Below, one piece after another: positions 13,892 to 38,706 of a DNA stretch of 64,000 bases. Origin of the DNA: an uncultured cyanobacterium (lineage in GTDB: Bacteria; Cyanobacteriota; Cyanobacteriia; Phormidesmidales; Phormidesmidaceae); assembly GCA_963793265.1 (NCBI GenBank), contig CAWBZI010000002.1:480001-544000 (forward strand), read 5' to 3'. Under the pieces are notes generated by a model. It searched no databases. It worked only from the letters and a program-made list of their open reading frames with translations, and was not told the DNA's origin. Position 1 is the stretch's first letter. Every line of letters begins with the position of its first letter. Both the position numbers and the translations under genes were made by a program.

Positions 13892-14155
13892 ATGAAGTCT
13901 ATTTTTAGTCTGGAACATAGTGCATTTCGTAAGTGCATGGTCATAGCCCGAAAGGAAGCTAATTTGACCCAGGCAGCGCTCGCTAGTGCGATTAAAAAGC
14001 CTCAGTCTTTCGTTGCGAAATATGAAAACGGCGAAAGAAGACTAGATGTGATCGAATTTATCGTTATTACTCACGCAATCGGCGTAGATCCTTGTGAAAT
14101 TGTACGAAAAGTCGAGCAGTCTCTTCGTACCACATCCGGCGAAGGAGAGATGTGA
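13892..14155 (+). CDS. XRE-family HTH regulator (putative RM controller protein)
   Basis: ARKEANLTQAALASAIKKPQSFVAKYENGERRLDVIEF; its stop overlaps the next start (GTGA). Confidence 0.85.
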   Translation: MKSIFSLEHSAFRKCMVIARKEANLTQAALASAIKKPQSFVAKYENGERRLDVIEFIVITHAIGVDPCEIVRKVEQSLRTTSGEGEM

Positions 14156-15069
14156 ACACACCAGAAGTCATCAGGCTAGCAACTCAATACTTAAACGATT
14201 TATCTGGTCATACGTTCGACGTATTGAGTATTTCTAAACCCATTTCCCCCAATGCCGCCGTTAACCTCGCCAAAGTAATTTCTAAGCTGTCACCCCTGCT
14301 AGGAAACTTGATTGAATTTAACACGGTTGAATTTCTAAATCAGCAAGAAATATTTACGCCTTTCGGGGAATGGAGAAGGCAGGATCCTGGATTTCCAGAT
14401 GCCGTGTTCATCGGCAACGTGCAACCTACACCAGGGTTAGAAATAAAAGCGTGGTTCCCATTGGCTACTGAAATAACAGCCCGCTTCAAAGATAGTCAGA
14501 ATCACTTTCAATTCGATCAAACATACGTTGTACTGCTAGCTTGGTTGCCTGAAGCCGTAATCTATAAAAGGCCCAAAATCCTGGATGTGTGCGTCGTGTC
14601 TGGTCACTCAATAGCAAAAGCAAGAGATGATCACTACCACAATCCCCCTGATTATCTGGTGCTTGAACCAGAGGACACAACCCAGAGAACGCAAAACTTA
14701 CAGCAAACAAATACCAGCGGACATAAGTTTCAAGGAACAAATAAGGAATTTTTAGAGGCTAATAGAATAGTTGAATCTTGGGGCAGCGACGGAAAAGCTT
14801 ATAAGCCCACACGAGAGTACCAAGAACGCTTACGAGAACTTATCACTCGCTTCAGGTACAGATTAGACACTAATTTCGCAAAGATGGACAGAATCAAGCA
14901 TCCAGAAATTGAAACCTTCAAAAGGCGCGTCTCTAGAACAGAGTTTTCTGGCTTAGAAGTTAGAGAATGGAGAAAACTTTTAGCAAGCCGACAGGATGAT
15001 TTAATCAAATCCGCACTGAGAGAACATCTCAAAATCAGAGAAGAGAGCGTTGATGAGCTACTTGATTAA
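14152..15069 (+). CDS. Putative type II restriction endonuclease (PD-(D/E)XK)
   Basis: GNLIEF...RQDPGFPDAVF...GLEIKAW; lies between the controller and the MTase. Confidence 0.65.
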   Translation: MNTPEVIRLATQYLNDLSGHTFDVLSISKPISPNAAVNLAKVISKLSPLLGNLIEFNTVEFLNQQEIFTPFGEWRRQDPGFPDAVFIGNVQPTPGLEIKAWFPLATEITARFKDSQNHFQFDQTYVVLLAWLPEAVIYKRPKILDVCVVSGHSIAKARDDHYHNPPDYLVLEPEDTTQRTQNLQQTNTSGHKFQGTNKEFLEANRIVESWGSDGKAYKPTREYQERLRELITRFRYRLDTNFAKMDRIKHPEIETFKRRVSRTEFSGLEVREWRKLLASRQDDLIKSALREHLKIREESVDELLD

Positions 15070-16123
15070 ACCTCTTAACGCCATAATAGAAGTAGGTTTC
15101 GTCGATTTCACAGGCATAAGCTTTGCGGTTGAGCATATTAGCCGCCAAAGAAGCACTAAAAAGCCCACCAAATGGCTCCCAAACAACGTCTTGGTCACTG
15201 CTCGACGCCTCAATGATCAGTTTCATCAAATCAAGCGGCTTTTGGTTTAGATGAACTGCCTTACCCTCAACAGATTTGATTCGTTCGTCGCTGCGTAAAG
15301 CGGATCGATCCCAGACGTTGGTAAAGCCATGCGGACAATCAAACTTAGAGCGCATCTTTCCCCACTCTTCACCCGTCAATGGCCGCTCACCATCTACAGA
15401 AAAGTAAGGTTTGCTATCTGGTTTGCCATGCTCGTTCGCATAGGCAACTAATCTCTCGAACATTTCAATGGGCGGAAAATACCACAGATGCCCTTGAGTA
15501 AAATACTTCCTCGTTGCGGCATCTGCTACACCACAAGCCAAATTAGCTCTACATAAAGGCAAACCTGATCTTAACCATTCCTTTCGCAGCCATTCCTTAA
15601 GCATCAGGCCATCAAGCTTGACTTCTCTGACATATTGAACGCAAACCTCGGTAACGACTGGGAAGCGCCTTATTTTCTTTGTATTGACATTGCCCGCAAT
15701 ATGGCCTTTTCCCTTATTCCATATATTGCAGTTGACATAGCGCCAACCAAATTTCTCAAGTATTGGATGAACTGTAGCCCACCCGATCTCCGAATTCCAA
15801 AACCAAAGCGTTGTAGCAGGCAGTGCAAATCTCGACCAAGATTCTATGTGAGGCTCGTACCACTCAGGCAGGTCAAAATGATCTGACGTATCACCTTCAA
15901 ACCCCAGAATGCCATATCCACCGTCTGAGACTATTACCGTAGGCCGTTCCCAAAATTTATAGTGCTCAATGCTATCGCCCAAACTCAAGCTAACGTTGCT
16001 GTTATCCCAAGCAGAAAAAGCAAGCTCTTTATTAAGACAGACAGATTTACCACGTCCAACTGTACTTGTTGCTTTATTCTTTTTTGCCTTCGATAGGCTA
16101 TGGGAAGGCTTAAGCAAACTCAT
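15035..16123 (-). CDS. Site-specific DNA methyltransferase (N4/N6, beta-class motif order)
   Basis: LGDS, catalytic-position VSDGGYG, HLNQKPLDLM, SAM-binding WEPFGGLFSA, ACEID; convergent with the REase and overlapping it by 35 bp. Confidence 0.85.
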   Translation of the reverse strand: MSLLKPSHSLSKAKKNKATSTVGRGKSVCLNKELAFSAWDNSNVSLSLGDSIEHYKFWERPTVIVSDGGYGILGFEGDTSDHFDLPEWYEPHIESWSRFALPATTLWFWNSEIGWATVHPILEKFGWRYVNCNIWNKGKGHIAGNVNTKKIRRFPVVTEVCVQYVREVKLDGLMLKEWLRKEWLRSGLPLCRANLACGVADAATRKYFTQGHLWYFPPIEMFERLVAYANEHGKPDSKPYFSVDGERPLTGEEWGKMRSKFDCPHGFTNVWDRSALRSDERIKSVEGKAVHLNQKPLDLMKLIIEASSSDQDVVWEPFGGLFSASLAANMLNRKAYACEIDETYFYYGVKRFNQVAHQRSLL

Positions 16124-21307: not shown

Positions 21308-22426
21308 CTATGTCCAGTAGAGTATTTCTGCATTAGGAAACGTTTGCGCTATCTTCTCTTCAAAAAACTCTCGTAGTGACTGAGTAGTGGGTTTGTCATA
21401 GACGTACTTGATACCACCAAACTTGTTTCGCTTCGTAGATCGCGATTCCATGCCCATATCCAATTTGCTTTTTGGATACCACTCGTTCAAAACCTTTTTG
21501 GATTTAGAGGTATAGCGATGGCTAATCAGTTCAAAGGTAAGATCGCACTCGAAGTCCAAAGCGGCTGCGAGCTGATCGAACAGAGCATCGTAGTGGCTTT
21601 GCCAGTCTGTAAAGGCCATAATTGGCGCAATCACTAGGCCGATAGTATAGCCACCGCCCCCTCTTTCTTTGGGTAGGGCGAGCTGTCTGAGCGCGGCGAT
21701 GCGATCGCTCACCTTTGCCGTCCCCCCTTCAAACCCCTGCGCCACCGGATCAGCATTCACACTCGCCCGACACCGCGTATGCCCGTTATGCTCAATCTCT
21801 AGTAAAGGCTGCACGTTATCAAACTTAGATACCCACCGCAATCGCTTATCAGGCTGCTGACCAAAGTAACGAATGCACTCACCCAGGCTCCCGGTTAAGT
21901 GCTCCAAGCTCAATGGATCGGTATAGCAGCTCACCTCGAAGCTAGTCGTTTCTGTGTCTGAACTATAGTTAGCCGTATTCTCTAAGATCTCCAGCAAGTT
22001 CGCAAATACTCGAATTACTGGTGGCCCAGACAAGCTGCTTGCCAAATAACAATACTGACAGTGAGCCGGACACCCTTCTGCCAAATGAAACTGCCAGTCC
22101 GCAGACGGCGGAATTGGCTGAAGCTTAAACGCACTCGGCGGCGCAGTCACCACCGCCATTGTCTGCTTAGCCTTCGCATAAGTCTCTCTTTCTGTCTCAC
22201 CTCTCAGGCCCACCACCCTATTGTTCTTTAGCTCAACAATCGGCAGTCCCATATCGCTAATCCGTTGATATATTTGCTGGCCCCAGGGTTCTTCTAGTGC
22301 CGCTGGGGTGAACATGACTTGCTTAGGCATCCACAAGCGGGTAGCCGATTGAGGTGGAGATTGAGGCGTTTTGACTGAGTTTTTGACTGGGGTAGGGGAG
22401 AGGGCTGGCATGGGCGATTGCGTCAA
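21308..22426 (-). CDS. Spore photoproduct lyase-family radical SAM protein
   Basis: GCPAHCQYCYL (CxxxCxxC), FEVSCYTD, GLVIAPIM, KRNKFGGIKYVY. Start could be 22426 (TTG) or a downstream ATG. Confidence 0.85.
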   Translation of the reverse strand: MTQSPMPALSPTPVKNSVKTPQSPPQSATRLWMPKQVMFTPAALEEPWGQQIYQRISDMGLPIVELKNNRVVGLRGETERETYAKAKQTMAVVTAPPSAFKLQPIPPSADWQFHLAEGCPAHCQYCYLASSLSGPPVIRVFANLLEILENTANYSSDTETTSFEVSCYTDPLSLEHLTGSLGECIRYFGQQPDKRLRWVSKFDNVQPLLEIEHNGHTRCRASVNADPVAQGFEGGTAKVSDRIAALRQLALPKERGGGGYTIGLVIAPIMAFTDWQSHYDALFDQLAAALDFECDLTFELISHRYTSKSKKVLNEWYPKSKLDMGMESRSTKRNKFGGIKYVYDKPTTQSLREFFEEKIAQTFPNAEILYWT

Positions 22427-22829
22427 CAGTATGCGTCAACAGTACAGGTAATTTTTATCAGCGTTATATACATATAGTTTGACAAAAAAACGCAGAGACA
22501 GTACCGCTCTCAGGTACGGTTTTACGACCTCAAAAGCTGTTCCTTTCGATACCTTCTGCCTGTAGCAAAGACTGTTAGCAAAGGTTGCGGGCAAAGACCG
22601 CCTACAAAGGAAGCGCCGTAAAAAATATAACCGTGAAACACTTTGACGCCGTAAATTTTTTGACGGCAAAGCAAAAGCTACCGTGAAGAAATCAAAAATA
22701 CTTACATAAAGCATTCTTGTTGAATTAAACTACTGAAGCCTTCAAAAGGCCATATTAAAGTCGCTTTTGCGCAATTTCGAGGGCTACGCCCTACATCGTC
22801 ATCTGCATCCAGCAGGCTTATTTTGCGGC

Positions 22830-24272
22830 ATGGACTTCAAGCACCATATATTTATCAGCTATAGACACATCGATGACAAACCTTATCCAGCGGGCTCTAT
22901 CGGTTGGGTATCAAAGTTTCATCACATATTAGAAACTGCTTTAGCTGTCCGCAGAGGAGAAGAGCAGCGCTTGTGGCGAGATGTCACGAGGATGAAAGGT
23001 AACGAAAACCTAAGTGAAACGCTATTCGACACGCTCTCAGAGAGTGCTTTGCTAGTCTCTATTGTGTCACCGTCTTACTTAAAGTCTCAGTGGTGTTCGC
23101 GAGAACTCCGTCATTTTTGCCAGGAGGCCGAAAAAACAGGCGGGCTCGGCGTCGGTGAGCATGGATCTAGACTGTTTAAAGTTGATAAAGAGCACATACC
23201 GCTAGATCAGTGCCCTCCAGAGTTTCAAACATCACTTGGCTATCGGTTCTATGAGTTTGACGAGGCACAGTATCCCAAGGCGCTCGATCAGCCTTCTGAA
23301 AAAGTGGTAGGCGAGAAGTATATGGCTGTTATAGAAAGGCTTGCCAGAGAGATATGCGAGACGTTAGATACTTTAGAGACATCTTCTGAAGAAAGCCCTC
23401 AGCCGTCTAAAAAGCTCATCTATCTCTCAGAAACTACCGATGATCTGAGAGAGATCAGAGAGAGTATTCGTCAGAGCTTAGAAATGGACGGGCATCGGGT
23501 ATTGCCGTCGCAAATGCTGCCGCCAGAGGCAGACTTCTCTGAGAAAGTATTAGAGAATATGTCGCAGTGCGAGATGTCTATTCATTTGGTTAGTCCGAGT
23601 GCCCATCGTACTCAAGAGTTCCGTCAAAAGCTGATGGCGGCTAAAACTCAAGAGCAGATCAACATCTCTAGTCAGTGTGTTGAGAATAAACAGAGCTTGA
23701 CTCGCATATTTTGGATGCCACCGACCGAAACAGCAGATAGCTCAGACCCGTTTATCCGATCCATTCAAAGCGAGCCTAACTTTTTGAGTATGCCGGTTGA
23801 GTCATTAAAAACAACCATTCAAGATCAGCTACAGCAGCAAAGGGCGATCGCACTTGCGCCTGTAGGTAACGGGTCTAGCAAAGTATATCTTGACTGCGAT
23901 GAGGATGATTTTTTATATGCAGACGATATTGAGCCTATATACGACTGGCTCAGAAAGCGTTTTGATGAGGTTGTTTTGCCAGAACACGGTATGCACAATC
24001 TGAGCAGCTCAGAGGCCAGATTAAAGCAGTGCGAGGCTGTCTTGATTTACTACGGGCGCGCGCGCGATTTTTGGTTTGAAAGGCGGATATGCGCGCTGCA
24101 AAAAGCGCTTAGAAACGATCGCCCGCAGCCATTGCGAGCCAAGGCTATCTATGTGTCAAGACCAAACACGCCGAAAAAACAAAACCTCAACTTAAACATT
24201 CCTGTGATTAACGGAATAAGAGAATTTAGCGCCGAGATTCTCAATGTTTTTTCAGAGCAACTGGAGGCATAA
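22830..24272 (+). CDS. Multi-TIR protein (TIR + DUF4062/TIR-like + TIR-like)
   Basis: HIFISYRHID...LWRD...VSPSYLKSQWCSREL; second module IYLSETTDDL...QCEMSIHLV; third module VYLDCDEDD...QCEAVLIYYG. Confidence 0.8.
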   Translation: MDFKHHIFISYRHIDDKPYPAGSIGWVSKFHHILETALAVRRGEEQRLWRDVTRMKGNENLSETLFDTLSESALLVSIVSPSYLKSQWCSRELRHFCQEAEKTGGLGVGEHGSRLFKVDKEHIPLDQCPPEFQTSLGYRFYEFDEAQYPKALDQPSEKVVGEKYMAVIERLAREICETLDTLETSSEESPQPSKKLIYLSETTDDLREIRESIRQSLEMDGHRVLPSQMLPPEADFSEKVLENMSQCEMSIHLVSPSAHRTQEFRQKLMAAKTQEQINISSQCVENKQSLTRIFWMPPTETADSSDPFIRSIQSEPNFLSMPVESLKTTIQDQLQQQRAIALAPVGNGSSKVYLDCDEDDFLYADDIEPIYDWLRKRFDEVVLPEHGMHNLSSSEARLKQCEAVLIYYGRARDFWFERRICALQKALRNDRPQPLRAKAIYVSRPNTPKKQNLNLNIPVINGIREFSAEILNVFSEQLEA

Positions 24273-24275
24273 ACA

Positions 24276-27200
24276 GTGCAGCTATTGATTAAGCCTTCTA
24301 CTCGAACCAATCCTTTCCCCGGTCTGCGCCCCTTTTTATTAGGCGAAGAAGATCTGTTCTTTGGGCGCGAAGGACAGTCAGATCAGCTATTAGAAAGACT
24401 CTACAGCGAGCGTTTTTTAGCAATCGTAGGAGCCTCTGGTAGCGGTAAGTCTTCTTTGGTACGCGCAGGTCTTTTGCCATCGCTCTATAGCGGTCTTTTT
24501 GTTTCGGCAAACGAAGCATGGCGCGGTGTGGCCAGCTCTAAGTGGAAAATTGCCATATTTAGACCCGGCAATGACCCAATTGAAAATTTGGCAGAGGCGC
24601 TCAATCGGCCTGAGGTGTTTGGGCGATCGCCTGACGAAAAAGATGCCAGCATTTATGCAGCGCTCAATAAAATCACGCTGAAGCGAGGGCACTTAGGCTT
24701 AGTAGAAGTCGCGCAGCAGGCTCGGATGGTAGAAAAAGAGAGTCTGTTAGTCGTGGTCGATCAGTTTGAAGAGCTGTTTCGGTTTAAGCAGAGCGCGCAG
24801 TCTCTAGAAGCTGAAGACAAAGCCGCTGCTTTTGTGAAACTTTTGCTGTCGGCTGTTAAACAAAGGGATGTGCCCATTTTTGTGGTGCTGACGATGAGAT
24901 CGGATTTTATTGGAGACTGCGCTCAGTTTCGCGATTTGCCAGAGGCGCTCAACGATAGCCAGTATTTGGTTCCGCGTCTGACGCGATCGCAGCTAAAAGA
25001 TGCCATTCAAGGGCCAGTAGCGGTTGCCAACGGCGAGATTACGCCTCAGCTCGTCAACCGATTGCTGAACGATGCCGGAGAAGATCCCGATCAGCTTCCT
25101 ATTTTGCAGCACGCGCTGATGCGAACGTGGGAATACGCATCAACTTCACAAGGGCCGCTCGATATGGCTCACTATGAGGCCATTGGCGGTGCTCGGGAGG
25201 CGCTTTCTCGCCATGCCGATCAAATTTATCGCAAGCTACCTGATGAGCGATCGCGCCAACTCGCCCAAAACATATTCAAAGCCATCACCGACCGAGGCCC
25301 TGACAACCGCGAAATTCGCCGCCCGCTAAAGCTCAAGCAAATCTGTGAAGTCACTGGCGCTAGTCCCAAAGAGGCCATTACTGTTATCAATGCTTTTAGC
25401 GGCCCCCAATGCTCTTTTTTAACGCCGCCTGCGGCCACCCCAAAAAAGGGAGATAGCGTTATTGATATCTCTCATGAGAGCCTCATGCGCAACTGGCAGC
25501 AGCTCAAAGCGTGGATAGATGAAGAAGCCTCATCGGCTAATATATACCGGAGACTCGCCCAAACAGCGGCGCTTCAGGCAAACCAAAAAGCGGAATACTA
25601 TCGCGGCCCTGAGCTATCTATTGCCCTAGAATGGCTAGAAAAGCAGCAGCCCAGCCAGCAATGGGCACAGCGATATGCGCCAAACTTTGAGCAGTCTAAA
25701 GCATTCTTAAAAGAGAGTGAGAAAGCTGAGCTGAAATTTAAGCAGGCTGAAAAACGAAAGCTTCAGGCGAGCGTAGTTTTTGGCTTATCGTTTCTTATTC
25801 TAAGCGTTTTTCTAGGCTGGTCGGTAAGAGAACAAAAGCGAATCAACCGCCAGGTAGAAAACGCCGAGATAGCGGCCACTGCCGAAAAGCTCATCGTGCA
25901 GTCAAACCAGATTAGAACAACTCAGCCAAACCTGCGTCCAACGGCTGCATTACTGGCCGTAGAGGCGTTTAATCAGCTTCAATCCGTCAAAGAATCGACC
26001 GTTGAAGCGAAGGGAAACCTACAGCGCAGCATCCTTCAGCTACCCCAGGCCATCTATCGTTCACAAGACACCAACACTCACGCCTTTAGCCCCAACAATC
26101 GATACATCGCCACAGGGGGCTCTAATGGAAAGGTTAGCCTCATCGATACCACTAGCCAAAAGCTAGTCTCTACGGCTAGCCATGACTACTCCGTTTCAAA
26201 GGTTATCTTTAGCAGCGACAGTCAGTATCTTGCAACGCTTGGCAGCGACCATCAAGCTAAGCTAATCGACGTTAAAAAGAGAGAAGAAATCGCAGAAGTG
26301 GAGCACTCAGATCCCATTTTTGACATTAGCTTTAGCAATAATGGTCAGTATCTATCAACGCGCAGTAAAGACGGCATAGCAAAGGTAATAGATACCCAAA
26401 CAGGCGATTTGATTACGACTATCTATCACGATGCCCCTACCGGATCGAACTACTTCAGCAGCGACAGCAACACCCTCATCACAACTAGCGGCGATGGCGC
26501 TGTGAGAATGGTCAATTTGAAAACCAAAGTCGTTACTAATATTGCTGAGTACAGTGACGACCAGATAAACGTTGTATTTAGTAGCGATAGTAAATACGTT
26601 GCACTCTACCCGACTAAAGAGAGTAAAGAGATCGAGATCATTTCAACTGAGACAGGCGAGAATATTAAAACGCTCAGCTATGAGGAAGAGATAGAAGGAC
26701 TAATATCTAAGGTCATTTTCAGTCCTAGCAGTGCCTATTTAGCAGTCGGTACCAGTGAAGGCGCTTTAGAAATATTCGATCTAACAACCAAAACAGTGGT
26801 ATCGACAGCCGAGTATCAAGGGCGTATTACAGAGCTTGCCTTCGATGTAGAGGGAAACCGCTTGGCCGTATCAATGAGCGGTAGCGAAGACTCAATAGAC
26901 ATTATTGACTTAGCCACTAAAAAGACCATTCATGAACTAGAGACTTATAATGATGCGACAACCCTAAGCTTTAGTGCTGACGGTAAATATTTGATTGCAC
27001 AGAGCTACTACGAAATAGAGATATTTGATTTAGAAAAAGATGCGTTAGTCAATGACATCTATCACTCTGGTGGCATCGGGAACGTCGCAATTAGCCCGGA
27101 CGAGCAGTACGTAGCCACCTATGACAACAGCGGCGTAGTCAGAATCATCAAGCTCAGCGTAGGTGAGATTTCGTCCTTGTTTCAGCATAGCGGAATTGAT

Positions 27201-29792
27201 GGGTTTTCCTTTAGCGATAGCAGCGAGTACTTAGCGACAAGAGGCTCAGATAAAACCGCAAAAGTTATCGAAGTTGAAACAGGCAAAATTATCTCTTCTA
27301 TTGAACATGAGTCTGCGATTTCTGAGATGTCTTTTAGCAAGAACAGTCGATACTTTGCTACAAACGATCTTTCAGGTGCGTTTAAGTCTATTGAAATAGA
27401 CAACCAAAAATCGTCGCAATCGCAGTTTAGATACAAAAACTCTCAAATTGATAGGTCTTTTGACGAAGATAAAAAGAGAATGGCTTTGGCGCTAGATCAA
27501 ACCAACGTTAAAGTGATTGATGCTGCTTCAGGTGAAGTTTTAGTGACTAGCACCAGCGACGCATCGATAGAGAACATTAGCTTTAGCGATAGTGGCCGTT
27601 ACTTGGCCACTCGTGATACCGGGTATTCTGTAAAGATTGTGGATGTGGAGACAAGAGAAGAAATCTCTGATATTGATCATGACTTTAGAGTAAAAGGATT
27701 AGCTATTAGCAACGATGAAAAATATATTGCGACTGGAACAGGTGACGGATTTTTAAGAATTATAGATCTCTCGACAGGAGATCTGATTGAACAGCTTGAA
27801 ATTCCTGATGATGATTGGACGTATCAATTCACCGGAGACGGACAGTATATTTTAACGAGAACGCCACGAGGAAAAATCAGAGGCATTCGAGCCTCAACAG
27901 GCGAGCAAATTTACGCTATTGATAGTAGCGATGATGAAGAAGGTGAGAGCGATCAGGGGTCGTGGAATATGAAAGTGAGCGAAAACGGCAAGTTTTTTGT
28001 GATGTCGAACGCTCAGAGTCCCAACGTGAAGGTATACAAGACTGAGACTGGCGAGATGGTTAGAGAGCTTGAGCATGGCGACTATGTTAAGTATGTAACC
28101 TTTAGCGAAAATAGCGAGCACTTGCTCTCTCGTAGTATTGATAATGTCATTAGAGTCTCTAACACTACAAATGCAGACGAGACAGCCCCTATTAAAGTGC
28201 AGACGAAAAACTCTATCCAATGGACGAAATTTAGCGAAGATAGTAAAGCATTAGCCTACTACACCATTGATGGAGAGGTCGGCATTATCTCTACCGAGAC
28301 AGAACAAACCGTTTCACTCGATCATGATTCTTCGGTTAACTTTCTCAGCTTTAGTGAAGACAGCAAGTATATGGCTACAGGGAGTGCAGATAAAACGGCC
28401 AAGCTAGTAGAAGTTGCTACTGGTGAGGTGGTTAAAACAATTGAATCAAACGGCTCCGTTGCTAGCGTAGTGTTTAGCGAAAACAGTCAATATATAGCTG
28501 CTGTTAGTAACGACAGAACGGCGCAAGTCGTTGATGTGTCAACGGGTGAGGTCGTTGGATTTGTTGAGCACAGCTCTGAAATTATGGGCGTTGCATTTAG
28601 CCCCGACAGCAGGATCTTTGCCACCTACGGTAAAGACAGAGTGGCTCAACTTATTCAGACAGACGGCGAGCAGCCGATTAATAGCATTGCGCATGAGGAC
28701 GATATTACAGGCATAGCGTTTAGCGAAGATAGCCAGTATGTCGCAACGGGTAGTGCTAATGGCGTCGTGAAGCTGCTGAAAGCAGATACAGGCGAAGAGA
28801 TTACGGTGATTGCGCACGAAAATGCTATTAACTTTCTTACGTTTAACCATAGTTCTAATACTTTGATCACCTCTAGCGTTGATGCGTCGCTGTATGTTAC
28901 GGAGATATCTGATACGGATTTTGAGGTGCAAGATGTGTGCGATCGCCTGGATGAAAACCTGTCGGTCAGCACGTGGAAAAAGTATATGGGAACCCCGCTC
29001 GAAGACTACACGCTCACCTGCGAAAACGCGCCTGTTGACATCAGCCTGCTTACAGAAGCAGGCAGCTTGGTAGAAAGAGAAAAAGAAAAAGAAGCCCAGT
29101 CGCTGCTCAAACGTATCCAAAAAATTGCGCCCAAAACCGACCTGTATCCGCACAGCTTAGATGTAGAAACTGAAATAGACTTTGTTATTGACGTTTGGAA
29201 AGTCAATCGACTCATTAAAGATGGCACCCAAGCAGCTCAGAGTAAAAAGATAGAGAAGGCTGCTGAAAGCTTCAAAGCCGCGCAAAACGTTATTCCGGGC
29301 GTCGATTTGAACACCGCTACTTTTTCTGTAGATACCGATCCAGAAGAGATTGCTAAATCCATAGCGGCTCGGTCGATCATCAAAGAAAAAACGTTAGACA
29401 GTAGCTCAAATCCAAGCGTTAGCCGAATTCAAGGAATTCTCGCTAACTATCAAAGGGCAAAAGAGCTTGACCCAGATGCCGATATATCGTCTTCTCAATG
29501 GGATCGCATCTGCTGGCTAGGCAGTCTTAATCGCGTTTATGAAGAGGTTATGACTGCTTGCGATCGCGCTATCAGTCAAGAGCCCGATTACATTGGCTGG
29601 CGCGATAGCAGAGGAATTGCGCGCGCCCTAAAAGGCGACAGGGCAGGCGCTATTGAAGACTTTCAAGCCTACATCAATTGGAATGGAAGCCCGCCCCGTC
29701 GAAAAGAGCAAAGACAGCAGTGGGTGAGTCGCCTTCAGAATGGAGAAAACCCTTTTACTGAAGCCTTACTCAAAGAACTTCGAGAAGAATAA
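24276..29792 (+). CDS. nSTAND1-family NTPase with TM helix, long WD40 array and C-terminal TPR-like domain
   Basis: NPFPGLRPF/FFGRE, Walker A GASGSGKSS, Walker B VVVDQFEELF, TMRSDF, LPILQHAL, ISHESL; TM ASVVFGLSFLILSVFLGWSV; many H..V..FS.D..YLAT.S.D.TAK repeats; DSRGIARALKGDRAGAIEDF. Confidence 0.9.
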   Translation: MQLLIKPSTRTNPFPGLRPFLLGEEDLFFGREGQSDQLLERLYSERFLAIVGASGSGKSSLVRAGLLPSLYSGLFVSANEAWRGVASSKWKIAIFRPGNDPIENLAEALNRPEVFGRSPDEKDASIYAALNKITLKRGHLGLVEVAQQARMVEKESLLVVVDQFEELFRFKQSAQSLEAEDKAAAFVKLLLSAVKQRDVPIFVVLTMRSDFIGDCAQFRDLPEALNDSQYLVPRLTRSQLKDAIQGPVAVANGEITPQLVNRLLNDAGEDPDQLPILQHALMRTWEYASTSQGPLDMAHYEAIGGAREALSRHADQIYRKLPDERSRQLAQNIFKAITDRGPDNREIRRPLKLKQICEVTGASPKEAITVINAFSGPQCSFLTPPAATPKKGDSVIDISHESLMRNWQQLKAWIDEEASSANIYRRLAQTAALQANQKAEYYRGPELSIALEWLEKQQPSQQWAQRYAPNFEQSKAFLKESEKAELKFKQAEKRKLQASVVFGLSFLILSVFLGWSVREQKRINRQVENAEIAATAEKLIVQSNQIRTTQPNLRPTAALLAVEAFNQLQSVKESTVEAKGNLQRSILQLPQAIYRSQDTNTHAFSPNNRYIATGGSNGKVSLIDTTSQKLVSTASHDYSVSKVIFSSDSQYLATLGSDHQAKLIDVKKREEIAEVEHSDPIFDISFSNNGQYLSTRSKDGIAKVIDTQTGDLITTIYHDAPTGSNYFSSDSNTLITTSGDGAVRMVNLKTKVVTNIAEYSDDQINVVFSSDSKYVALYPTKESKEIEIISTETGENIKTLSYEEEIEGLISKVIFSPSSAYLAVGTSEGALEIFDLTTKTVVSTAEYQGRITELAFDVEGNRLAVSMSGSEDSIDIIDLATKKTIHELETYNDATTLSFSADGKYLIAQSYYEIEIFDLEKDALVNDIYHSGGIGNVAISPDEQYVATYDNSGVVRIIKLSVGEISSLFQHSGIDGFSFSDSSEYLATRGSDKTAKVIEVETGKIISSIEHESAISEMSFSKNSRYFATNDLSGAFKSIEIDNQKSSQSQFRYKNSQIDRSFDEDKKRMALALDQTNVKVIDAASGEVLVTSTSDASIENISFSDSGRYLATRDTGYSVKIVDVETREEISDIDHDFRVKGLAISNDEKYIATGTGDGFLRIIDLSTGDLIEQLEIPDDDWTYQFTGDGQYILTRTPRGKIRGIRASTGEQIYAIDSSDDEEGESDQGSWNMKVSENGKFFVMSNAQSPNVKVYKTETGEMVRELEHGDYVKYVTFSENSEHLLSRSIDNVIRVSNTTNADETAPIKVQTKNSIQWTKFSEDSKALAYYTIDGEVGIISTETEQTVSLDHDSSVNFLSFSEDSKYMATGSADKTAKLVEVATGEVVKTIESNGSVASVVFSENSQYIAAVSNDRTAQVVDVSTGEVVGFVEHSSEIMGVAFSPDSRIFATYGKDRVAQLIQTDGEQPINSIAHEDDITGIAFSEDSQYVATGSANGVVKLLKADTGEEITVIAHENAINFLTFNHSSNTLITSSVDASLYVTEISDTDFEVQDVCDRLDENLSVSTWKKYMGTPLEDYTLTCENAPVDISLLTEAGSLVEREKEKEAQSLLKRIQKIAPKTDLYPHSLDVETEIDFVIDVWKVNRLIKDGTQAAQSKKIEKAAESFKAAQNVIPGVDLNTATFSVDTDPEEIAKSIAARSIIKEKTLDSSSNPSVSRIQGILANYQRAKELDPDADISSSQWDRICWLGSLNRVYEEVMTACDRAISQEPDYIGWRDSRGIARALKGDRAGAIEDFQAYINWNGSPPRRKEQRQQWVSRLQNGENPFTEALLKELREE

Positions 29793-29945
29793 CTACGCCT
29801 TCAGGTGCGGTTCGACGAGCCTAAAACTAATCTCTTCTATTCTTCCTAATTAGGGATGAAGGATGCCTTCGAACTATTAACCATAGTAAGACAGCCACAA
29901 ACAAGCAGGTCGTATTTTGTCACGGCAAACCTTTTAGGAGAATAA

Positions 29946-30332
29946 ATGCAATACAGCGAAATCATTAAGAACGTTCAAGCCGCCGCGAAAGTGGACGATA
30001 AAGCGGCAGCAGAGAAAGCAATTCAGGCCACGCTAGAAACGCTCAAACAGAGAATTATCGGGGATGAAGCTGAGAACTTGGCCGCTCAGCTTCCTGAAGA
30101 GATTGGTCAGCACTTACGCGGGCGAGCGGGCGAAAATGGCGATCACTTTCCCCTCAAGGAGTTCTATCAAAAAGTCAGTCAAATCGAAGGTGTTGATCTA
30201 GAAACAGCAGCAACCCACGTTCAGGGCGTTTTCTCTGCGCTCGGCTCAGCCGTTACCTCAGGAGAGTTTTCAGATATCAAAAATGACCTATCAGACGACT
30301 ACGCAGAACTCTTTCCTGCTAATGCCTCTTAA
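29946..30332 (+). CDS. DUF2267 family protein
   Basis: AIQATLETLKQRI..EAENLAAQLPEE, EFYQKVS..EG, VFSAL...VTSGE; AGGAG SD upstream. Confidence 0.85.
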   Translation: MQYSEIIKNVQAAAKVDDKAAAEKAIQATLETLKQRIIGDEAENLAAQLPEEIGQHLRGRAGENGDHFPLKEFYQKVSQIEGVDLETAATHVQGVFSALGSAVTSGEFSDIKNDLSDDYAELFPANAS

Positions 30333-30355
30333 CAGAGCCATCTAACCAACTGGTT

Positions 30356-30781
30356 TTAAAGCGGGGGAGGGTGTTCGCTTGAGCTGTACAAAATTTTGCG
30401 GAGATTCAAGAGCCCAAGGCGATTAAGCTCTAGCTTTTTAACGGTAGCCCGGCCAATGGCTGTTAAACCTACTATTTCCGTAAAACCTTCACTCCAGGCA
30501 AAATGATCGCTCCATCGGTGAGAGCGAGGATTGTAAAGTGAGACTATAGTTTGAGTAACTGGATCGACAGCATGAATATTGACGTATTTTCTGTTGTTGC
30601 AGCCCTGGCATGCAAAAGCTAGGTTTGAAAGCACATTCTGGCCCGCTTTTGCTTTTGGAATAATGTGGTCAACAGAAAACGAATCCGTAGAGAATGCTTC
30701 TTGAGAGCAACAGTATTCACAGCAAAATTTCGCCCTCTGTGCGACTTTTTCTTTGAGCTTTAAAGGAACTCTCTTACCCAC
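30356..30781 (-). CDS. HNH endonuclease
   Basis: CEYC...VDHIIP...NLAFACQGCNNRK, LYNPR..W.DHF, GRATV..LELN. Confidence 0.9.
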   Translation of the reverse strand: MGKRVPLKLKEKVAQRAKFCCEYCCSQEAFSTDSFSVDHIIPKAKAGQNVLSNLAFACQGCNNRKYVNIHAVDPVTQTIVSLYNPRSHRWSDHFAWSEGFTEIVGLTAIGRATVKKLELNRLGLLNLRKILYSSSEHPPPL

Positions 30782-31193
30782 TATGGGTTCGAGGTTGTAG
30801 CTCTAGCTCTTCAATAATTTGTTTCACAGATGTATTGCGGAGCTTAGCTAACTCAGATACCGCAGTAAGCCTTGTCACGTTAGCCGCTTCCACTTGATCT
30901 GAAAAAGCTATTAGTGCTTTATGATCTTCTGCCGTCAGCGTTTCGTCTTCACGTTTTTTCATGAGTGCATAGTAACGCTGCCAATCAATTGCATCTACGC
31001 TGTGATTGACTACTTGGATCAAATTAGTCTCCGCTACTGAAAGACTATGTTCTGTCGCTCCTTTGATTTTATTAGAAGCTAGCACTTCTTGAATAAGCTG
31101 CGCTACGTAAACGTCAGGAGATAGCCCCGCTGCTTGCGCTGCCTGCTTTAATTGCTGTTCAGTTTCGGGCGGTATTTGAATAGTCAGAGCCAT
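30774..31193 (-). CDS. Hypothetical protein, putative antitoxin partner of the HNH gene
   Basis: RHH-like N-terminus MALTIQIPPETEQQLKQAAQAAGLSPDVYV; overlaps the HNH start by 8 bp. Confidence 0.65.
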   Translation of the reverse strand: MALTIQIPPETEQQLKQAAQAAGLSPDVYVAQLIQEVLASNKIKGATEHSLSVAETNLIQVVNHSVDAIDWQRYYALMKKREDETLTAEDHKALIAFSDQVEAANVTRLTAVSELAKLRNTSVKQIIEELELQPRTHSG

Positions 31194-31207
31194 TACACAA
31201 TCCTTTA

Positions 31208-32029
31208 CTAAACGGTCATCGTGTCCAAAACTCGATTCAGCTTTCCGCTCTTATAGCCTTCCAAATCCAAAGTTACATAGGTAAAGCCAAAACCTTGAAA
31301 GGCTTCTACTAAAGCTGGTAAATCGACTTTGCTGACAAATCCTGTAATTTCTTCAGGCATTAGCTCAATTTTTGCCGTTTCTCCATCTGAGCGCACACGC
31401 AAATTTCGATAGCCCAAGTCACGCATGTAGCGCTCAGCGCGGCCTACTCTATGCAGCTTTTCGGTAGTGATCAGCTCGCCGTATGGGAAGCGAGAGCTAA
31501 GGCAGGGCTGAGAAGGCTTGTCCCACCAAGGGAGGCCAAGCGATTTGGAGAGTTCGCGCACCTCTAGCTTGGTGATGCCGACTTCTGCTAGGGGCGATCG
31601 CACCCCTCTTTCTTTAGCCGCCGCAATCCCAGGCCGATAGTCTTGCAAATCATCCGCATTGAGCCCGTCTACCACATACTCATAGCCCAGCTCATCAGCT
31701 AGCGGGCGTAGGGTATCGTGCAGTTCACTTTTGCAAAAGTAGCAGCGATTCACCGGATTAGAGGTGTACTGCTCATTGTCCATTTCGTGCGTTTCGACCA
31801 CCTTATGCGCAATGCCCATCTCTGCGGCCTGAGACTTGGCATCGTCAAAATCTTCAGGCATTAAGGAAGGTGAATTAGCTGTCACCGCAAGAGATTTTGA
31901 ACCCAGGATGTCAAAGGCAACTTTCGCGACTAGCGTACTGTCAATCCCACCCGAATAGGCAACGAGGGCACGATCCATTTCGCGAAAAATAGTTTGGAGC
32001 TGAGTGAGTTTAGTAGGCAGGCTAGGCAT
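31208..32029 (-). CDS. larE: ATP-dependent sacrificial sulfur transferase LarE family
   Basis: PP-loop AYSGGIDS, NRCYFCK, DYRPG, PCLSSRFPYG, VTLDLEGY. Confidence 0.9.
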   Translation of the reverse strand: MPSLPTKLTQLQTIFREMDRALVAYSGGIDSTLVAKVAFDILGSKSLAVTANSPSLMPEDFDDAKSQAAEMGIAHKVVETHEMDNEQYTSNPVNRCYFCKSELHDTLRPLADELGYEYVVDGLNADDLQDYRPGIAAAKERGVRSPLAEVGITKLEVRELSKSLGLPWWDKPSQPCLSSRFPYGELITTEKLHRVGRAERYMRDLGYRNLRVRSDGETAKIELMPEEITGFVSKVDLPALVEAFQGFGFTYVTLDLEGYKSGKLNRVLDTMTV

Positions 32030-34777: not shown

Positions 34778-36145
34778 TCAAATAACCAAACCGTAGCCCG
34801 TACACCACAGCACCATCAAAGCCCCCTGCAATCCGCCTAAGCAAAGCGTCAGCCACAAATTCCACTGCCCTTTATAGCTCAGTATTGCCAGCCCAATGAA
34901 GAGGGGAAAGATAGGCAGCGTAAATCGAGCCATAGACGCCACACCCGCTGAAAGTGGGATAAAAATGGAATACATGCCGAACAGCCAGTAAGCAAGTCCA
35001 ATAGCTCTGGCGTATAGACTAAGCAGCGCAAAAGCCCCGAGGAAAAAGGCGCACTCCAGCAGTTTTTTAAAGCTCGGCTCGCTTACCCCCTGGCTCAGCC
35101 CCTGCCAGAGAGAAGCGACCGGGTTCAAGATCTCGCGATCCCATGCAGCCTGATTCGTCTTAAAAAATAAGTAGTCGCCGGTTATCTGGTGCGTGTATAC
35201 AGAGAATGCGAGTAGACCCAGCGGCACCAGCAGCAGAAACAAACTGTTAAAGCGAATGTCTTTGAGCTTGAAGTCGATACGCTTCAGATACTCATACAAA
35301 AGTGGCAGCGCAATTAGTATGCCCAGCGTTCTGGTTGCCGAGAGCAGCCCACCGCAAACACCCGCTAGCCACCACTTCTGTTTTTTCGCAAAATAGAAGC
35401 ACAGCAGTGTCAAAAATAGGTACAGAGACTCTGTGAATACGCCCGACAAAATGAAGGAAACCGGAAACAAAAACAGATATCTCACTGAGCGGCGAGCAAT
35501 CTTTTTACTCCACTGCATCTCTACAAGTTTGTATAAAACGTAGCAAGAGAGTAGCAGACAAACGTTGGAGATTAAAAGACCGGCCAAAAAGTAATGATCT
35601 CCGCCCACGCCACCAATGAGCTTCATCAGCATTGGATACAGGGGGAAAAACGGAAAGTTGGTCTGATCTGGAAACTCAGGTAGCTTGGTGGCAGTAGAGT
35701 AGCCGTTTTGGGCGATATCCATATACCACAGCGAATCCCACACCCCCCACATGTCTAGCCAGGTATATTTTGACCAGCTAATCTCTTTGCCGATGCTCGT
35801 CGGCAAAACGGCATAAGAGACTAGGCCAATCGCAGTTAGCACTATTCGAGTAGAGACAAACAAACCCAATATATACCGCAGCTCTGAAGCGAGGGTTTCG
35901 TGCCAGGGGAGCAGAGGCAAGAGTGTCTCGGGCGGGACGCTTGGTGACGCATCAAGGTGATAAGAGGTGGGCGATCGCCTAGAAAACGTCGGCTCAGCCT
36001 GAAAAGTAGGCTGCACAAAAGAAGGCGCTGCCTCTAAGTTAGCATCGTCGGATTTTTGCTTAGCAGACGGTGCATTACCCAGAGCGTGCGCTTTGTTTGA
36101 AACCTTTTCTTCATTGAGAGCCCTACTGTCGAAGCTCTTTGCCAT
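34778..36145 (-). CDS. GT-C mannosyltransferase family (PIG-V-like) protein, copy 1
   Basis: WDSLWYMDIAQNGY, FPFFPLYP, FTESLYL, ATRTLG; multi-TM; ~85-aa low-complexity N-terminal extension. Confidence 0.85.
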   Translation of the reverse strand: MAKSFDSRALNEEKVSNKAHALGNAPSAKQKSDDANLEAAPSFVQPTFQAEPTFSRRSPTSYHLDASPSVPPETLLPLLPWHETLASELRYILGLFVSTRIVLTAIGLVSYAVLPTSIGKEISWSKYTWLDMWGVWDSLWYMDIAQNGYSTATKLPEFPDQTNFPFFPLYPMLMKLIGGVGGDHYFLAGLLISNVCLLLSCYVLYKLVEMQWSKKIARRSVRYLFLFPVSFILSGVFTESLYLFLTLLCFYFAKKQKWWLAGVCGGLLSATRTLGILIALPLLYEYLKRIDFKLKDIRFNSLFLLLVPLGLLAFSVYTHQITGDYLFFKTNQAAWDREILNPVASLWQGLSQGVSEPSFKKLLECAFFLGAFALLSLYARAIGLAYWLFGMYSIFIPLSAGVASMARFTLPIFPLFIGLAILSYKGQWNLWLTLCLGGLQGALMVLWCTGYGLVI

Positions 36146-36374
36146 CCTTGAAACCTATAGGGTGCCGCGTCAGTTATATCGAACAAGCGTTAAAGAAGCA
36201 TGAGGCACATGCGAATACTTTCATAATTCGCATTAGTGAACAGTGATCAGGATCTTTTCAAAAAGGCTTTAAGCAAGACGTGTTGCCGTTTTCATGCTAT
36301 TCAACCTGGGTAAAAACACATCATCCTAAAGGTATAAATTACCACCTAGACCTATCTTTTAACCACTTAGATTT

Positions 36375-37529
36375 TCAAACTACCAAAGCCTGCCCCGTGC
36401 ACCAGTACAGCATCAAGCACCCTTGCATAAATCCTAAGAAAAGTGTCAGCGCGTCATCCCACAACTTATTGCGGCCAATACTCGCCAATATGATAAACAA
36501 AGGAAATATAGGTAAAGTATATCGCGGCACAGAGGCAATCCCGGCTGCCAGCGGAATCAATATGGAGTACATACCTAGCAGCCAGTACGAGAATTCAATT
36601 TTTTTATAGCCTGCAATCAGCAATAGCAGCGTAGCGCTACCAAAGGTGACTTCTAAAAGAGACTTAGCACTTGACTGGGCAATTCCCTGCTTTAGTCCTC
36701 TCCAAAGAGAAACAAGCGGATTCAAAATCTCGCGATCCCACGCGGCCTGATTGGTTTTGAAGTAAAAGAAGTCACCTGTAGCCTGATAGCTATAAACAGA
36801 AAATGCCAGTAGTCCTAGCGGCACCAGTAGTAAAAAAAGAACGTCTATACGCACTTTGTTGATCTTGAAGTTTATACTACGCACATACTCGAAGCACATC
36901 GGCAGTATGATTAACACTCCCAGCGTTCTTGTTGCAGATAACAGCGCACCGCTAACGCCAGCTAGCCACCACTTTTGGCGCTTTGCACTATAAAAACAAA
37001 GCAGTGTTAAGAAGAGATACAGCGATTCTGTGAAAACGCCTGAGAACACGAAAGATACGGGATACAAGAACAAATATTTGACACAGCGGCGCGCCATTTT
37101 TGGGCCTTGCTCTAGCTCGATTAGCTTGTAAAACAGATAGCAGGCCAGCAGCAGACAAACGTTAGATATGAAAAGACCTGCTAGAAAGTATTCGCCGCCC
37201 GTAAGCGTGCCGAAAAGGCGCATCAGCATTGGATAGAGCGGAAAAAACGGAAAGTTGGTTTGATCCAAGCTGCCTTCAATGCTGCCAACTGTGGAGTAGC
37301 CATTTTGAGCGATATCCATATACCAGTAGCTGTCCCACACGCCCCACAGGTCGATCCAGGTGTATTTTGACCAGCTAAACTGCTTGCCGTAGCCCGTTTC
37401 GCTCAGGCGGTGAGCCATCAGCCCCACCAGCGTCAGGGCAATTCGAGACGCCAAAAATAATCCGAAAATATATCGCAGCGCCGAAAAATTGGAGAAAAGC
37501 GTGCGGTCATTACGTCTAGATGTTTCCAT
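36375..37529 (-). CDS. GT-C mannosyltransferase family (PIG-V-like) protein, copy 2
   Basis: Same motifs (WDSYWYMDIAQNGY, FPFFPLYP, FTESLYL); ATG at 37529 avoids overlap with cobO. Confidence 0.85.
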   Translation of the reverse strand: METSRRNDRTLFSNFSALRYIFGLFLASRIALTLVGLMAHRLSETGYGKQFSWSKYTWIDLWGVWDSYWYMDIAQNGYSTVGSIEGSLDQTNFPFFPLYPMLMRLFGTLTGGEYFLAGLFISNVCLLLACYLFYKLIELEQGPKMARRCVKYLFLYPVSFVFSGVFTESLYLFLTLLCFYSAKRQKWWLAGVSGALLSATRTLGVLIILPMCFEYVRSINFKINKVRIDVLFLLLVPLGLLAFSVYSYQATGDFFYFKTNQAAWDREILNPLVSLWRGLKQGIAQSSAKSLLEVTFGSATLLLLIAGYKKIEFSYWLLGMYSILIPLAAGIASVPRYTLPIFPLFIILASIGRNKLWDDALTLFLGFMQGCLMLYWCTGQALVV

Positions 37530-37575
37530 AGTTAAAGTAGAGAAACGTATTCCTTGTAACCGGTTTTGACTTCCT

Positions 37576-38706
37576 ATGCCCAAAGCGATTGGCATCCGTA
37601 CTGCTCAAAATAACTCCGAACGTCTCACAGGCCAAATCCATGTGTATGACGGGGAGGGCAAAGGCAAGTCTCAGGTGGCCTTAGGCGTGGTGCTGCGCTC
37701 AATTGGCTTAGGGATTCATCAGTTCATGGAAAGCCGGGTGCTGCTGCTGCGCTTTTTGAAAGGGCCGGGGCGTACATATGACGAGGATGCGGCGATTGAG
37801 GCATTGCAGCGAGGGTTTCCGCACCTAATCGATCAGGTGCGAACGGGGCGCGCCGAGTTTTTTGGGCCAGAGGAAATTACTAAGTTTGACCAGCAGGAGG
37901 CGCAGCGAGGGTGGGATGTAGCGAAAGGGGCGATCGCATCCGGCCTCTATTCAGTCGTCGTGCTCGATGAAATTAACCCAGTGCTCGATCTCGACTTGCT
38001 TTCGATTGAAGACGTGGTGCGATCGCTCAAAAACAAGCCCGATCACCTAGAAGTAATCGCCACCGGCCGAGGCGCGCCCCCACAGCTGATCGAAATTGCT
38101 GATTTGCACTCAGAAATGAAGCCTCAGATTCACCAGACCGCCGCTGAGATGGGGATTGAAGGAATTGAGATCTATACGGGCGACGGTAAAGGTAAGTCTA
38201 CGAGCGCGTTAGGAAAGGCGTTGCAGGCGATTGGGAAAGGGATTAGTCAGGATAAGTCACACCGGGTTATGGTAATGCAGTGGCTTAAGGGGGGCCAGGG
38301 CTATACGGAAGATGCCGCGATCGCAGCCCTGCGCAAAAGCTATCCGCACCTCGTAGACCATCAGCGCTGCGGGCGGGATGCGATTGTATGGCGGGGGCAG
38401 CAGCAGCCGATTGACTATATAGAAGCTGAGCGGGGGTGGGAGATTGCTAGTACCGCGATCGCCTCTGGCCTCTACAAAACCATCATCCTCGACGAGCTAA
38501 ACCCCACTGTAGACTTAGAGCTACTGCCAGAAGAACCGATTATTCAAACGCTGCTGCGCAAACCCAAAGATACGGAAGTCATCATCACGGGTCGCTGTAA
38601 AAATCAGCCTGCGTACTTTCAGCTTGCCAGCGCTCACTCGGAGGTGTTTTGTCATAAGCACTATGCCGAACGTGGCGTAGAGCTGAAGCGCGGCGTAGAC
38701 TTTTAG
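37576..38706 (+). CDS. cobO: Cob(I)yrinic acid a,c-diamide adenosyltransferase (duplicated-domain cyanobacterial form)
   Basis: Two Y(D/T)GxGKGKS P-loops, two LDE(I/L)N motifs and two TGR motifs. Confidence 0.93.
   Translation: MPKAIGIRTAQNNSERLTGQIHVYDGEGKGKSQVALGVVLRSIGLGIHQFMESRVLLLRFLKGPGRTYDEDAAIEALQRGFPHLIDQVRTGRAEFFGPEEITKFDQQEAQRGWDVAKGAIASGLYSVVVLDEINPVLDLDLLSIEDVVRSLKNKPDHLEVIATGRGAPPQLIEIADLHSEMKPQIHQTAAEMGIEGIEIYTGDGKGKSTSALGKALQAIGKGISQDKSHRVMVMQWLKGGQGYTEDAAIAALRKSYPHLVDHQRCGRDAIVWRGQQQPIDYIEAERGWEIASTAIASGLYKTIILDELNPTVDLELLPEEPIIQTLLRKPKDTEVIITGRCKNQPAYFQLASAHSEVFCHKHYAERGVELKRGVDF

Follow-up and report, generated by a model that had tools for sequence, protein, structure and literature searches.

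What does a STAND NTPase do when it has no effector of its own and a TIR protein is encoded just upstream of it? Two adjacent genes raise this question in a 64,000-nucleotide stretch of DNA (the window; coordinates refer to it unless another locus is named) from an uncultured cyanobacterium of the Phormidesmidaceae (contig CAWBZI010000002.1 of assembly GCA_963793265.1). Its genome is 5.68 Mb, with the closest homologues among named records being cyanobacterial. We found the pair to be a real, conserved and uncharacterised module. The first gene codes for a partner protein with one active-type TIR and two dead TIR-fold domains, and the second for what is very likely a membrane-spanning STAND receptor, the two forming a two-gene system. 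For the window copy, the best overall explanation, to which we give a probability of about 0.5, is depletion of nicotinamide adenine dinucleotide (NAD+), with arrest or death, via the transmembrane (TM) STAND and the TIR docked on it. The features of the locus are:

22830..24272, + strand: gene 1, the TIR partner, 480 aa, no TM helix; ATG at 22830, TAA at 24270-24272
22830..23384, + strand: domain 1, canonical TIR (Pfam TIR_2, E 2e-14), with the predicted catalytic Glu92 at 23103-23105
23403..23849, + strand: domain 2, NIR/DUF4062-like (hhalign), with Gln276 (23655-23657) at the position of the NIR catalytic Glu
23865..24269, + strand: domain 3, TIR/flavodoxin-like fold, homologue of domain 2, no catalytic Glu seen (hhalign, structure model, VIA)
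24263..24278, + strand: junction, with GGAGG at 24263-24267, the TAA stop, a 3-bp gap (ACA) and the GTG start
24276..29792, + strand: gene 2, 1838 aa, effector-less nSTAND1-TM-WD40-TPR-like receptor (open reading frame from GTG; Pfam)
24309..25574, + strand: nSTAND1 NTPase module, predicted cytoplasmic (PF20703, E 2.6e-99)
24429-24452 and 24747-24773, + strand: Walker A and Walker B of gene 2, motifs invariant in 94 homologues
25761..25826, + strand: single TM helix, predicted N-in/C-out (hydropathy; charge bias in homologues)
26049..28925, + strand: diverged WD40 repeats, about 950 aa, several propellers, predicted extracytoplasmic sensor (Pfam)
28926..29789, + strand: helical TPR-like tail with two Cys pairs (1555/1582 and 1746/1762)
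22352..31225, no strand: accessory insert with the TIR-STAND pair, a DUF2267 gene and an HNH gene pair (comparison with a congener)

Pairing of the two genes

A scan of GTDB yielded at least 563 relatives among 600 stretches, of which 80 were kept; with two added relatives these make up 82 TIR-anchored loci. An nSTAND1 gene lies directly downstream of the TIR gene in 68 of the 82, follows after a gap in five, and lies upstream on the same strand in two. Of these five loci, one holds an ISAzo13 transposase in the gap, two a signal-peptide protein (YkuD-like in the one scanned), one is frameshifted and one has no clear gene there. Six further loci end at the contig, and in the last (L035) the first half of the TIR gene is joined to the last WD repeats in what looks like a deletion. 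The STAND is present at 75 of the 76 informative TIR loci. The reverse search with the NTPase gave the same picture: of 221 metagenome relatives the best 80 were kept, and the TIR gene precedes the STAND in 79 of them; the last has just 175 nt of upstream sequence. Within the phylum, the same 3 of 401 genomes hold each gene, at the same place (three candidates scored per genome). By record titles, the loci span Cyanobacteria, Acidobacteriota, Bacteroidota, Proteobacteria, Gemmatimonadota, Chloroflexota and others, though they are not independent events. The pairwise identities of partner and STAND are correlated (Spearman 0.81), to a degree that kinship alone could give. The two genes are a conserved unit, with a pairing that is nearly obligate in both directions.

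In the two loci with reversed order (L068, L076), the STAND comes first, the TIR partner about 1 kb later, and glycosyltransferase genes follow. Decayed modules were also seen (L220:2445-7170, L221:7067-8401, L048:10572-11770, L035:810-1789): in these, a transposase-like gene interrupts the STAND, the partner is broken and stands alone, an insertion sequence separates the two genes, or an internal deletion has occurred.

Homologues of gene 1 use the same start Met. The initial annotation had read the two genes as 3 bp apart, and the trinucleotide ACA indeed separates the TAA at 24270-24272 from the GTG at 24276. The GGAGG lies 8 nt upstream of this GTG, and the layout of ribosome-binding site, stop, gap and start suggests that the two genes may be translationally coupled. 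A promoter and terminator scan of the locus returned nothing above chance. The junction is bridged by contigs of two runs from one study, one of which may be the window's source, with the stop unchanged and no indel; in the homologues the two are distinct genes, each with a start codon of its own and mostly in different frames. A sequencing-error fusion was rejected on these two grounds, and the annotation's division into two genes stands. We found one fused homologue, P0027 (partner, nSTAND1, helical repeats and CHAT), a single record nested in the split clade; a search for longer fused forms gave none at E ≤ 1e-20, which is weak evidence. As the STAND tree (49 sequences) has four outgroups only and an ingroup support of 0.75, the monophyly of the STAND clade is suggestive only.

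Domains of the partner and predicted topology of the receptor

The structure model of the partner shows three alpha/beta domains, and hydropathy gives no TM helix. Domain 1 matches the fold of the RPP1 TIR (VIA Z 12.9, root-mean-square deviation 2.7, 137 residues aligned), and the solved sequences nearest to its profile are the plant signalling TIRs RUN1, RPV1 and RPP1, together with Cat1. Glu92, which aligns to the RUN1 TIR within the WCxxEL motif, is the sole invariant column among 141 partner homologues (141/141) and is kept in 59 of 59 members of the main clade. Domain 1 is, by its sequence, a canonical TIR with the catalytic Glu in helix C and a predicted NADase; cleavage of NAD+ by it is likely.

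Domain 2 matches a DUF4062 protein of a congener (hhalign 92.5%, E 5e-7), with SITELE opposite SxVxLQ. The Glu of this SITELE motif we take to be catalytic, from our reading of the motif. Since domain 2 has Gln opposite this Glu, it is NIR-like without the catalytic Glu. The position is Gln in 138 of 141 homologues and Glu in two, with H252 and W295 conserved around it. The Pfam DUF4062 score of the window's domain 2 is below the cut-off (19.1 vs 24.7), which homologues pass. In NIR/DUF4062 NADases this Glu is described as the catalytic residue (bioRxiv 10.64898/2026.09.04.749371; 10.64898/2026.05.01.722283; here and below, published sources are cited from the available parts of their text).

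Domain 3 is homologous to domain 2 (hhalign 94.8%), whereas hhalign found no significant similarity between domains 1 and 2 or between domains 1 and 3. Folded alone, domain 3 gives a model with a predicted local distance difference test (pLDDT) value of 92, and its fold comes closest to the RPS4/RRS1 TIR entry 4c6t (VIA Z 11.7, root-mean-square deviation 3.0, 127 aligned), with receiver domains near behind at Z 10.6, about 1 Z lower. VIA and the separate domain 3 model were used because a whole-protein Foldseek search was uninformative (best E 1.6e-4). The label of a triple-TIR protein, given in the initial annotation, is correct at the level of the fold only: the partner has one active-type TIR and two dead TIR-fold domains, the first of these being NIR/DUF4062-like. 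The family is large, with 561 clusters at 50% identity (E ≤ 1e-30). Among 17 proteins scanned for domains from the best 150 of these clusters, the partner is also fused behind Ser/Thr kinase, adenylate/guanylate cyclase, CHAT, trypsin and NTPase-TPR domains (e.g., P0077, P0146, P0133, P0029, P0150 and P0033).

In the gene 2 protein, nSTAND1 (PF20703) matches residues 13-433 with 333.9 bits against a cut-off of 27.1 (E 2.6e-99); NPFPGL begins at residue 12, and both Walker motifs (A, GASGSGKS; B, LVVVDQFEE) are intact. The leader ahead of the NTPase motif is just 4-21 aa long in 74 pairs (median 9 aa), and, as read from the sequences, the STAND is without an effector throughout its clade. A single hydrophobic helix at about 496-517 (Kyte-Doolittle 2.11) is followed by WD40 families over about 590-1567 and a tail with a weak TPR_9 match (E 7e-6, below the cut-off). 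These are the parts that had been read from the sequence at the outset—NTPase, TM helix, diverged WD40 repeats and TPR-like tail, with no N-terminal effector—and each was recovered.

The helix is a general feature of the family. Among STANDs long enough for the test, a helix with hydropathy of at least 1.7 follows the NTPase in 60 of 65 from GTDB and 72 of 72 from metagenomes (132/137), three of the five misses being borderline (1.52-1.65). It is an uncharged stretch averaging 23-24 residues, and of the distinct helices examined, 55 of 60 and 66 of 67 (121/127) are richer in Lys and Arg on the N-terminal flank than on the C-terminal one. Under the positive-inside rule, by which the positively charged flank of a TM helix stays in the cytoplasm, this bias points to an N-in/C-out topology. 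The WD40/TPR sensor would accordingly lie across the membrane from the NTPase, as the initial annotation had supposed, in the periplasm or conceivably, this being a cyanobacterium, in the thylakoid lumen. The domains found after the TM helix in homologues are WD40 (in most), TPR, RDD, PDZ, SLATT or murein endopeptidase M74, the last on the TM-bearing L081 (Pfam on 46 segments chosen from 73, plus one re-cut segment and the window tail). The two homologues that clearly lack the helix have cytoplasmic-type domains: PAS in L041, and TIR_2 followed by CHASE2 in L013. After the TM helix, the window STAND has only four Cys, which form the two pairs in the C-terminal tail.

Possible mechanism and rival readings

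A complex prediction of STAND residues 1-490 with the partner scored 0.58 against 0.00 for the best control, a result that the tool grades as weak. The three runs gave 0.61, 0.05 and 0.58, with contacts agreeing to at least 69% and partner pLDDT of at least 74. Of 157 solved pairs 116 attain the score mark, and so do 2 of 215 mismatched ones; with scores of 0.60 or below, only 18 of the solved pairs attain it, together with both mismatches. As the gene pairing is strict, the prior for binding is favourable. The model lends weak support to binding, and taken together we consider it probable that the partner docks on the NTPase.

On the reading that we prefer, the gene 2 protein would cross the inner membrane once, with its nSTAND1 switch in the cytoplasm, no built-in effector and, at the C-terminus on the far side, a sensor that can be exchanged, and gene 1 would supply its constant cytoplasmic partner, docked on the NTPase probably through the inactive NIR/TIR-like domains. 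STAND proteins exchange nucleotide and oligomerise upon activation; here a cue bound outside the cytoplasm may drive both steps. The oligomer would cluster the TIR1 domains, with NAD+ then being cleaved through Glu92. For an accessory cyanobacterial copy, the outcome would most likely be a conflict response, i.e., NAD+ depletion with growth arrest or death, triggered by an envelope attack from a phage, predator or competitor. Of these parts, a lethal or defensive output is the most finely balanced, with odds that are even or a shade better.

Several traits of the module resemble those of conflict systems: its spread is patchy, it is inserted at an empty site, its sensors are variable, SLATT and TPR-S/DRHyd-type genes occur nearby, and the partner has alternative N-terminal outputs. 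Across the phylum, 3 of 401 genomes carry the partner; in the family it is present in 9 of 60, and none of 5 congeners has it. In the window, the pair is an accessory insert at a site that is empty in a congener: the 8.9 kb between a spore-photoproduct-lyase gene and a larE-like gene are replaced there by about 195 nt. A search for mobile-element ends found no convincing flanking repeats, only one 20-nt inverted pair at 22367/30167, and none of 10 pattern matches in viral contigs is a relative. SLATT/DUF4231 genes occur in 9 of the 82 loci, none of them adjoining the window pair, and a DUF4231-bearing gene adjoins one distant relative; TPR-S/DRHyd-type neighbours stand at some copies. In L026, L027, L080 and L084 the SLATT/DUF4231 gene is directly upstream of the TIR partner, and in L031 it is fused behind the STAND. 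No third gene is conserved in the main clade, the largest neighbour clusters covering 9 loci each (82 loci).

A number of observations weigh against the preferred reading. PADLOC models matched 7 of 130 near and 8 of 130 far genes (130 of 167 near and 130 of 170 far candidates scanned, far being 5 kb or more), so that this test, rough and confined to 9 kb, gave no defence-island enrichment. The PADLOC models give the two proteins nothing better than weak or generic matches, those of the NTPase being mad3/mad8 matches of P-loop length; the pair is, as the initial annotation had suspected, undescribed in that collection. The recurrent neighbours are envelope proteins, namely outer-membrane barrels, TonB-dependent receptors, lipoproteins, YkuD and GH108. 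By source names, most of the metagenome loci (best 80 of 221) belong to one Cytophagales branch with a fixed operon: a TLC-HEAT-cNMP membrane protein, the partner, the STAND, a TPR and outer-membrane barrel protein, and a lipoprotein (L216:5228-19501, L217 and L218, Bacteroidota; L095-L167). The three extra genes are present at 62, 54 and 47 of the 80 loci, respectively. The partner occurs in 46 of 81 genomes of one Cytophagales family, mostly in single copy, and Glu92 is lost in 34 of 35 sequences of the branch (kept in one). The pair is kept there without Glu92, and NAD+ cleavage is therefore not required for its retention; the partner would thus be an adaptor as well as a possible enzyme. 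Further, one of the three complex runs scored only 0.05. The membrane arrangement is less novel than it may appear, as a TM helix after nSTAND1 is also found in four effector-fused nSTAND1 paralogues of the same genome (C2:151278-155867, C2:144636-148610, C1:1495602-1498496, C6:564010-568452), with long N-terminal domains that look caspase/CHAT-like by eye; metacaspase-NTPase-TM architectures are already in print (PMC3501461).

In the three Cytophagales genomes that were read further (L216, L217, L218), a large secreted protein follows the operon, with Ig/fn3 domains in L216.

The initial proposal of a defence or cell-death system went beyond what the comparison shows: defence enrichment was not found, envelope partners recur, and one branch dispenses with Glu92. 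The related claim that the TIR protein is an effector supplied in trans fared better in part, as it is a constant partner with weakly supported direct binding, although the Cytophagales branch shows that it cannot everywhere be acting through Glu92. From the varied partner fusions and the Cytophagales data, it follows that the module is a receptor-adaptor core with varying output, which may serve defence or envelope signalling.

Among the rival readings, the one that survives best keeps the same receptor and docking, but sees a non-lethal trans-envelope signalling relay comparable to a bacterial Toll/IL-1 receptor. The periplasmic propeller would read the state of outer-membrane or secreted partners, the output would regulate envelope or surface functions, and the TIR/NIR triad would serve chiefly as scaffolding, TIR1 producing at most a small nucleotide signal. 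The fixed Cytophagales operon with its barrel, lipoprotein and trailing secreted protein agrees with this reading, as do the loss of Glu92, the lack of defence enrichment and the kinase and cyclase fusions of the partner. So does a further link to the outer membrane: the N-terminal helical domain of the barrel protein recurs on TonB-dependent receptors encoded directly after the STAND in three Acidobacteriota and one other member of the Bacteroidota (L021:13682-16192, L025, L010, L224:3340-5925), and these receptors are possible periplasmic ligands of the WD40 region. The window copy, however, lacks the extra genes of that operon, has retained Glu92 and lies as a sporadic insert next to an HNH pair; moreover, Glu92 is invariant in the main clade while the sensors vary freely. 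We regard the relay as rather unlikely for the window copy. A broader proposal, which we put forward tentatively and at less than even odds, is that these proteins are a distinct and widespread class of transmembrane receptor and not sensors of phage proteins: an NLR-type switch, converted into a single-pass receptor, would read the periplasm or outer membrane and pass its signal to a universal TIR/NIR adaptor, much as a Toll receptor does with MyD88. Its output would be swappable (NADase, kinase, cyclase, protease or none), and the Cytophagales would have domesticated it as a relay from the outer-membrane barrel to the cytoplasm.

A second rival is Thoeris-like: TIR1 would make a diffusible signal derived from ADP-ribose, perhaps buffered by the dead NIR pockets, that opens a separate effector such as a nearby or distant SLATT membrane protein. 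The proximity of the TIR1 profile to the plant signalling TIRs and Cat1 is in its favour, as are the SLATT/DUF4231 genes of the nine loci, including the four directly upstream and the fusion in L031, the DUF4231-bearing gene beside the distant relative, and the conservation of H252 and W295 around the Glu-to-Gln site. Yet 73 of the 82 loci, and the window, have no SLATT neighbour, and the ThsB, ThcB4 and Thoeris model matches of the TIR protein are weak and far below the cut-off. Signal-making and NAD+-depleting TIRs are indistinguishable by sequence, and we consider this reading improbable.

That the hydrophobic helix is a buried coiled-coil or a membrane tether, with the WD40/TPR sensor in the cytoplasm as in Avs, is very improbable. 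While the topology is based on hydropathy and charge counts, the uncharged stretch in 132 of 137 homologues, the positive-inside bias in 121 of 127, the periplasmic-type domains after the helix and cytoplasmic-type ones where it is absent, and the confinement of the Cys pairs to the tail after it all argue against such an arrangement. The chance that a single fused gene was broken by sequencing error or a recent nonsense mutation is negligible: both reading frames are in register and the fused P0027 exists, but that is one record, no longer forms surfaced at E ≤ 1e-20, and the reproduced stop, the separate and usually out-of-frame homologues and the ribosome-binding site before the GTG contradict it.

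Other features of the window were also noted. Positions 13892-16123, a low-GC stretch, hold a helix-turn-helix gene (C-protein-like), a 305-aa open reading frame that matches nothing in Pfam and, convergent to these, an N6/N4 DNA methylase gene, which together look like a type II restriction-modification cassette. Two small toxin-antitoxin-like gene pairs, each an unannotated reading frame with an HNH endonuclease, lie at 30356-31193 (−) and 38757-39505 (+), the former within the TIR-STAND insert. At 34778-37595, two paralogues in tandem code for membrane proteins of about 400-450 aa that have a DMWGVWDS-type motif in common and may be similar to mannosyltransferases.

Comparison with known systems

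The split TIR/STAND pair was not found described in the literature searched, a scope that leaves out most subscription papers; the clade may be among the 589 STAND clades of PMC13581612 or the rarer variants in Fig. S9 of bioRxiv 10.64898/2026.10.19.760177. The closest described system is TIR-ParA/FxsC-FxsT, itself predicted only, in the latter source. As presented there, it too has an upstream stand-alone gene for an active TIR joined to an inactive TIR-like domain, and the sensor gene after it may contain nSTAND1 or a type-II single-TM receptor. The NCBIfam model FxsC_Nterm matches TIR1 across the domain but below the cut-off (57 bits vs 130), and 60 of 94 members match. In contrast to that system, there is no ParA here, only 4-21 residues of the STAND lie ahead of its NTPase motif, the NTPase and TM helix are in one chain, and the partner has two inactive domains, one of them NIR-like, with no match to the FxsC C-terminal model. 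The ParA-less variant named in that source is a direct TIR-STAND fusion and not a split pair.

With Avs and NLR proteins, the module shares a STAND switch with a repeat sensor and a TIR-fold effector with a catalytic Glu, which cleaves NAD+ in those proteins and is predicted to do so here; PsAvs2-type Avs STANDs with TIR or NIR (DUF4062) effectors have been reported (bioRxiv 10.64898/2026.09.04.749371; PMC12803255). Here, however, the effector is a separate gene and none is fused to the N-terminus of the NTPase (P0027 being the one fused exception), and domain 2 has the very Glu-to-Gln substitution used to inactivate NIR in 10.64898/2026.09.04.749371. As the sensor is predicted to lie across the membrane, it would not, unlike Avs, meet cytoplasmic phage proteins.

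The nSTAND1 counter-invader systems coupled by EADs have the same NTPase family (PF20703), effectors from neighbouring genes and some sensors predicted to be periplasmic (PMC8195603, PMC10907252). These systems and the BASS pairs are described as recruiting effectors in trans via shared motifs (PMC8195603, PMC7159879, PMC10907252, 10.1101/2020.01.06.895854), whereas here no homotypic adaptor is common to the two proteins, the STAND has no N-terminal domain and the partner is one constant family. The BASS pairs also resemble the module in having two adjacent genes, the effector first (TIR2 being a listed variant) and the NLR-like protein second, in filamentous cyanobacteria (10.1101/2020.01.06.895854). 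Amyloid coupling of the BASS kind was rejected: the mean local score between partner C-terminus and STAND leader was 11.9 for own pairs and 11.8 for other pairs (74 pairs), and the leader, with a median of 9 aa, is too short. Swarozyc has a DUF4062-type fold, like domain 2, but is presented as a single active NIR protein activated by the phage portal (bioRxiv 10.64898/2026.05.01.722283), whereas here the NIR-like domain has no catalytic Glu and is accompanied by a STAND.

The pair offers a two-gene model for three questions: whether a cue on the other side of a membrane can switch an NLR-type NTPase, by what means a TIR effector is brought in when there is neither a death-domain nor an amyloid adaptor, and which role catalytically dead NIR domains play. 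Its natural branches with and without Glu92 allow the enzyme to be compared with the scaffold. In the literature consulted, the characterised bacterial STAND immune receptors sense phage proteins in the cytoplasm and have the effector in the same chain; in the TIR-STAND family the effector is separated, and the sensor is predicted to be outside the cytoplasm.

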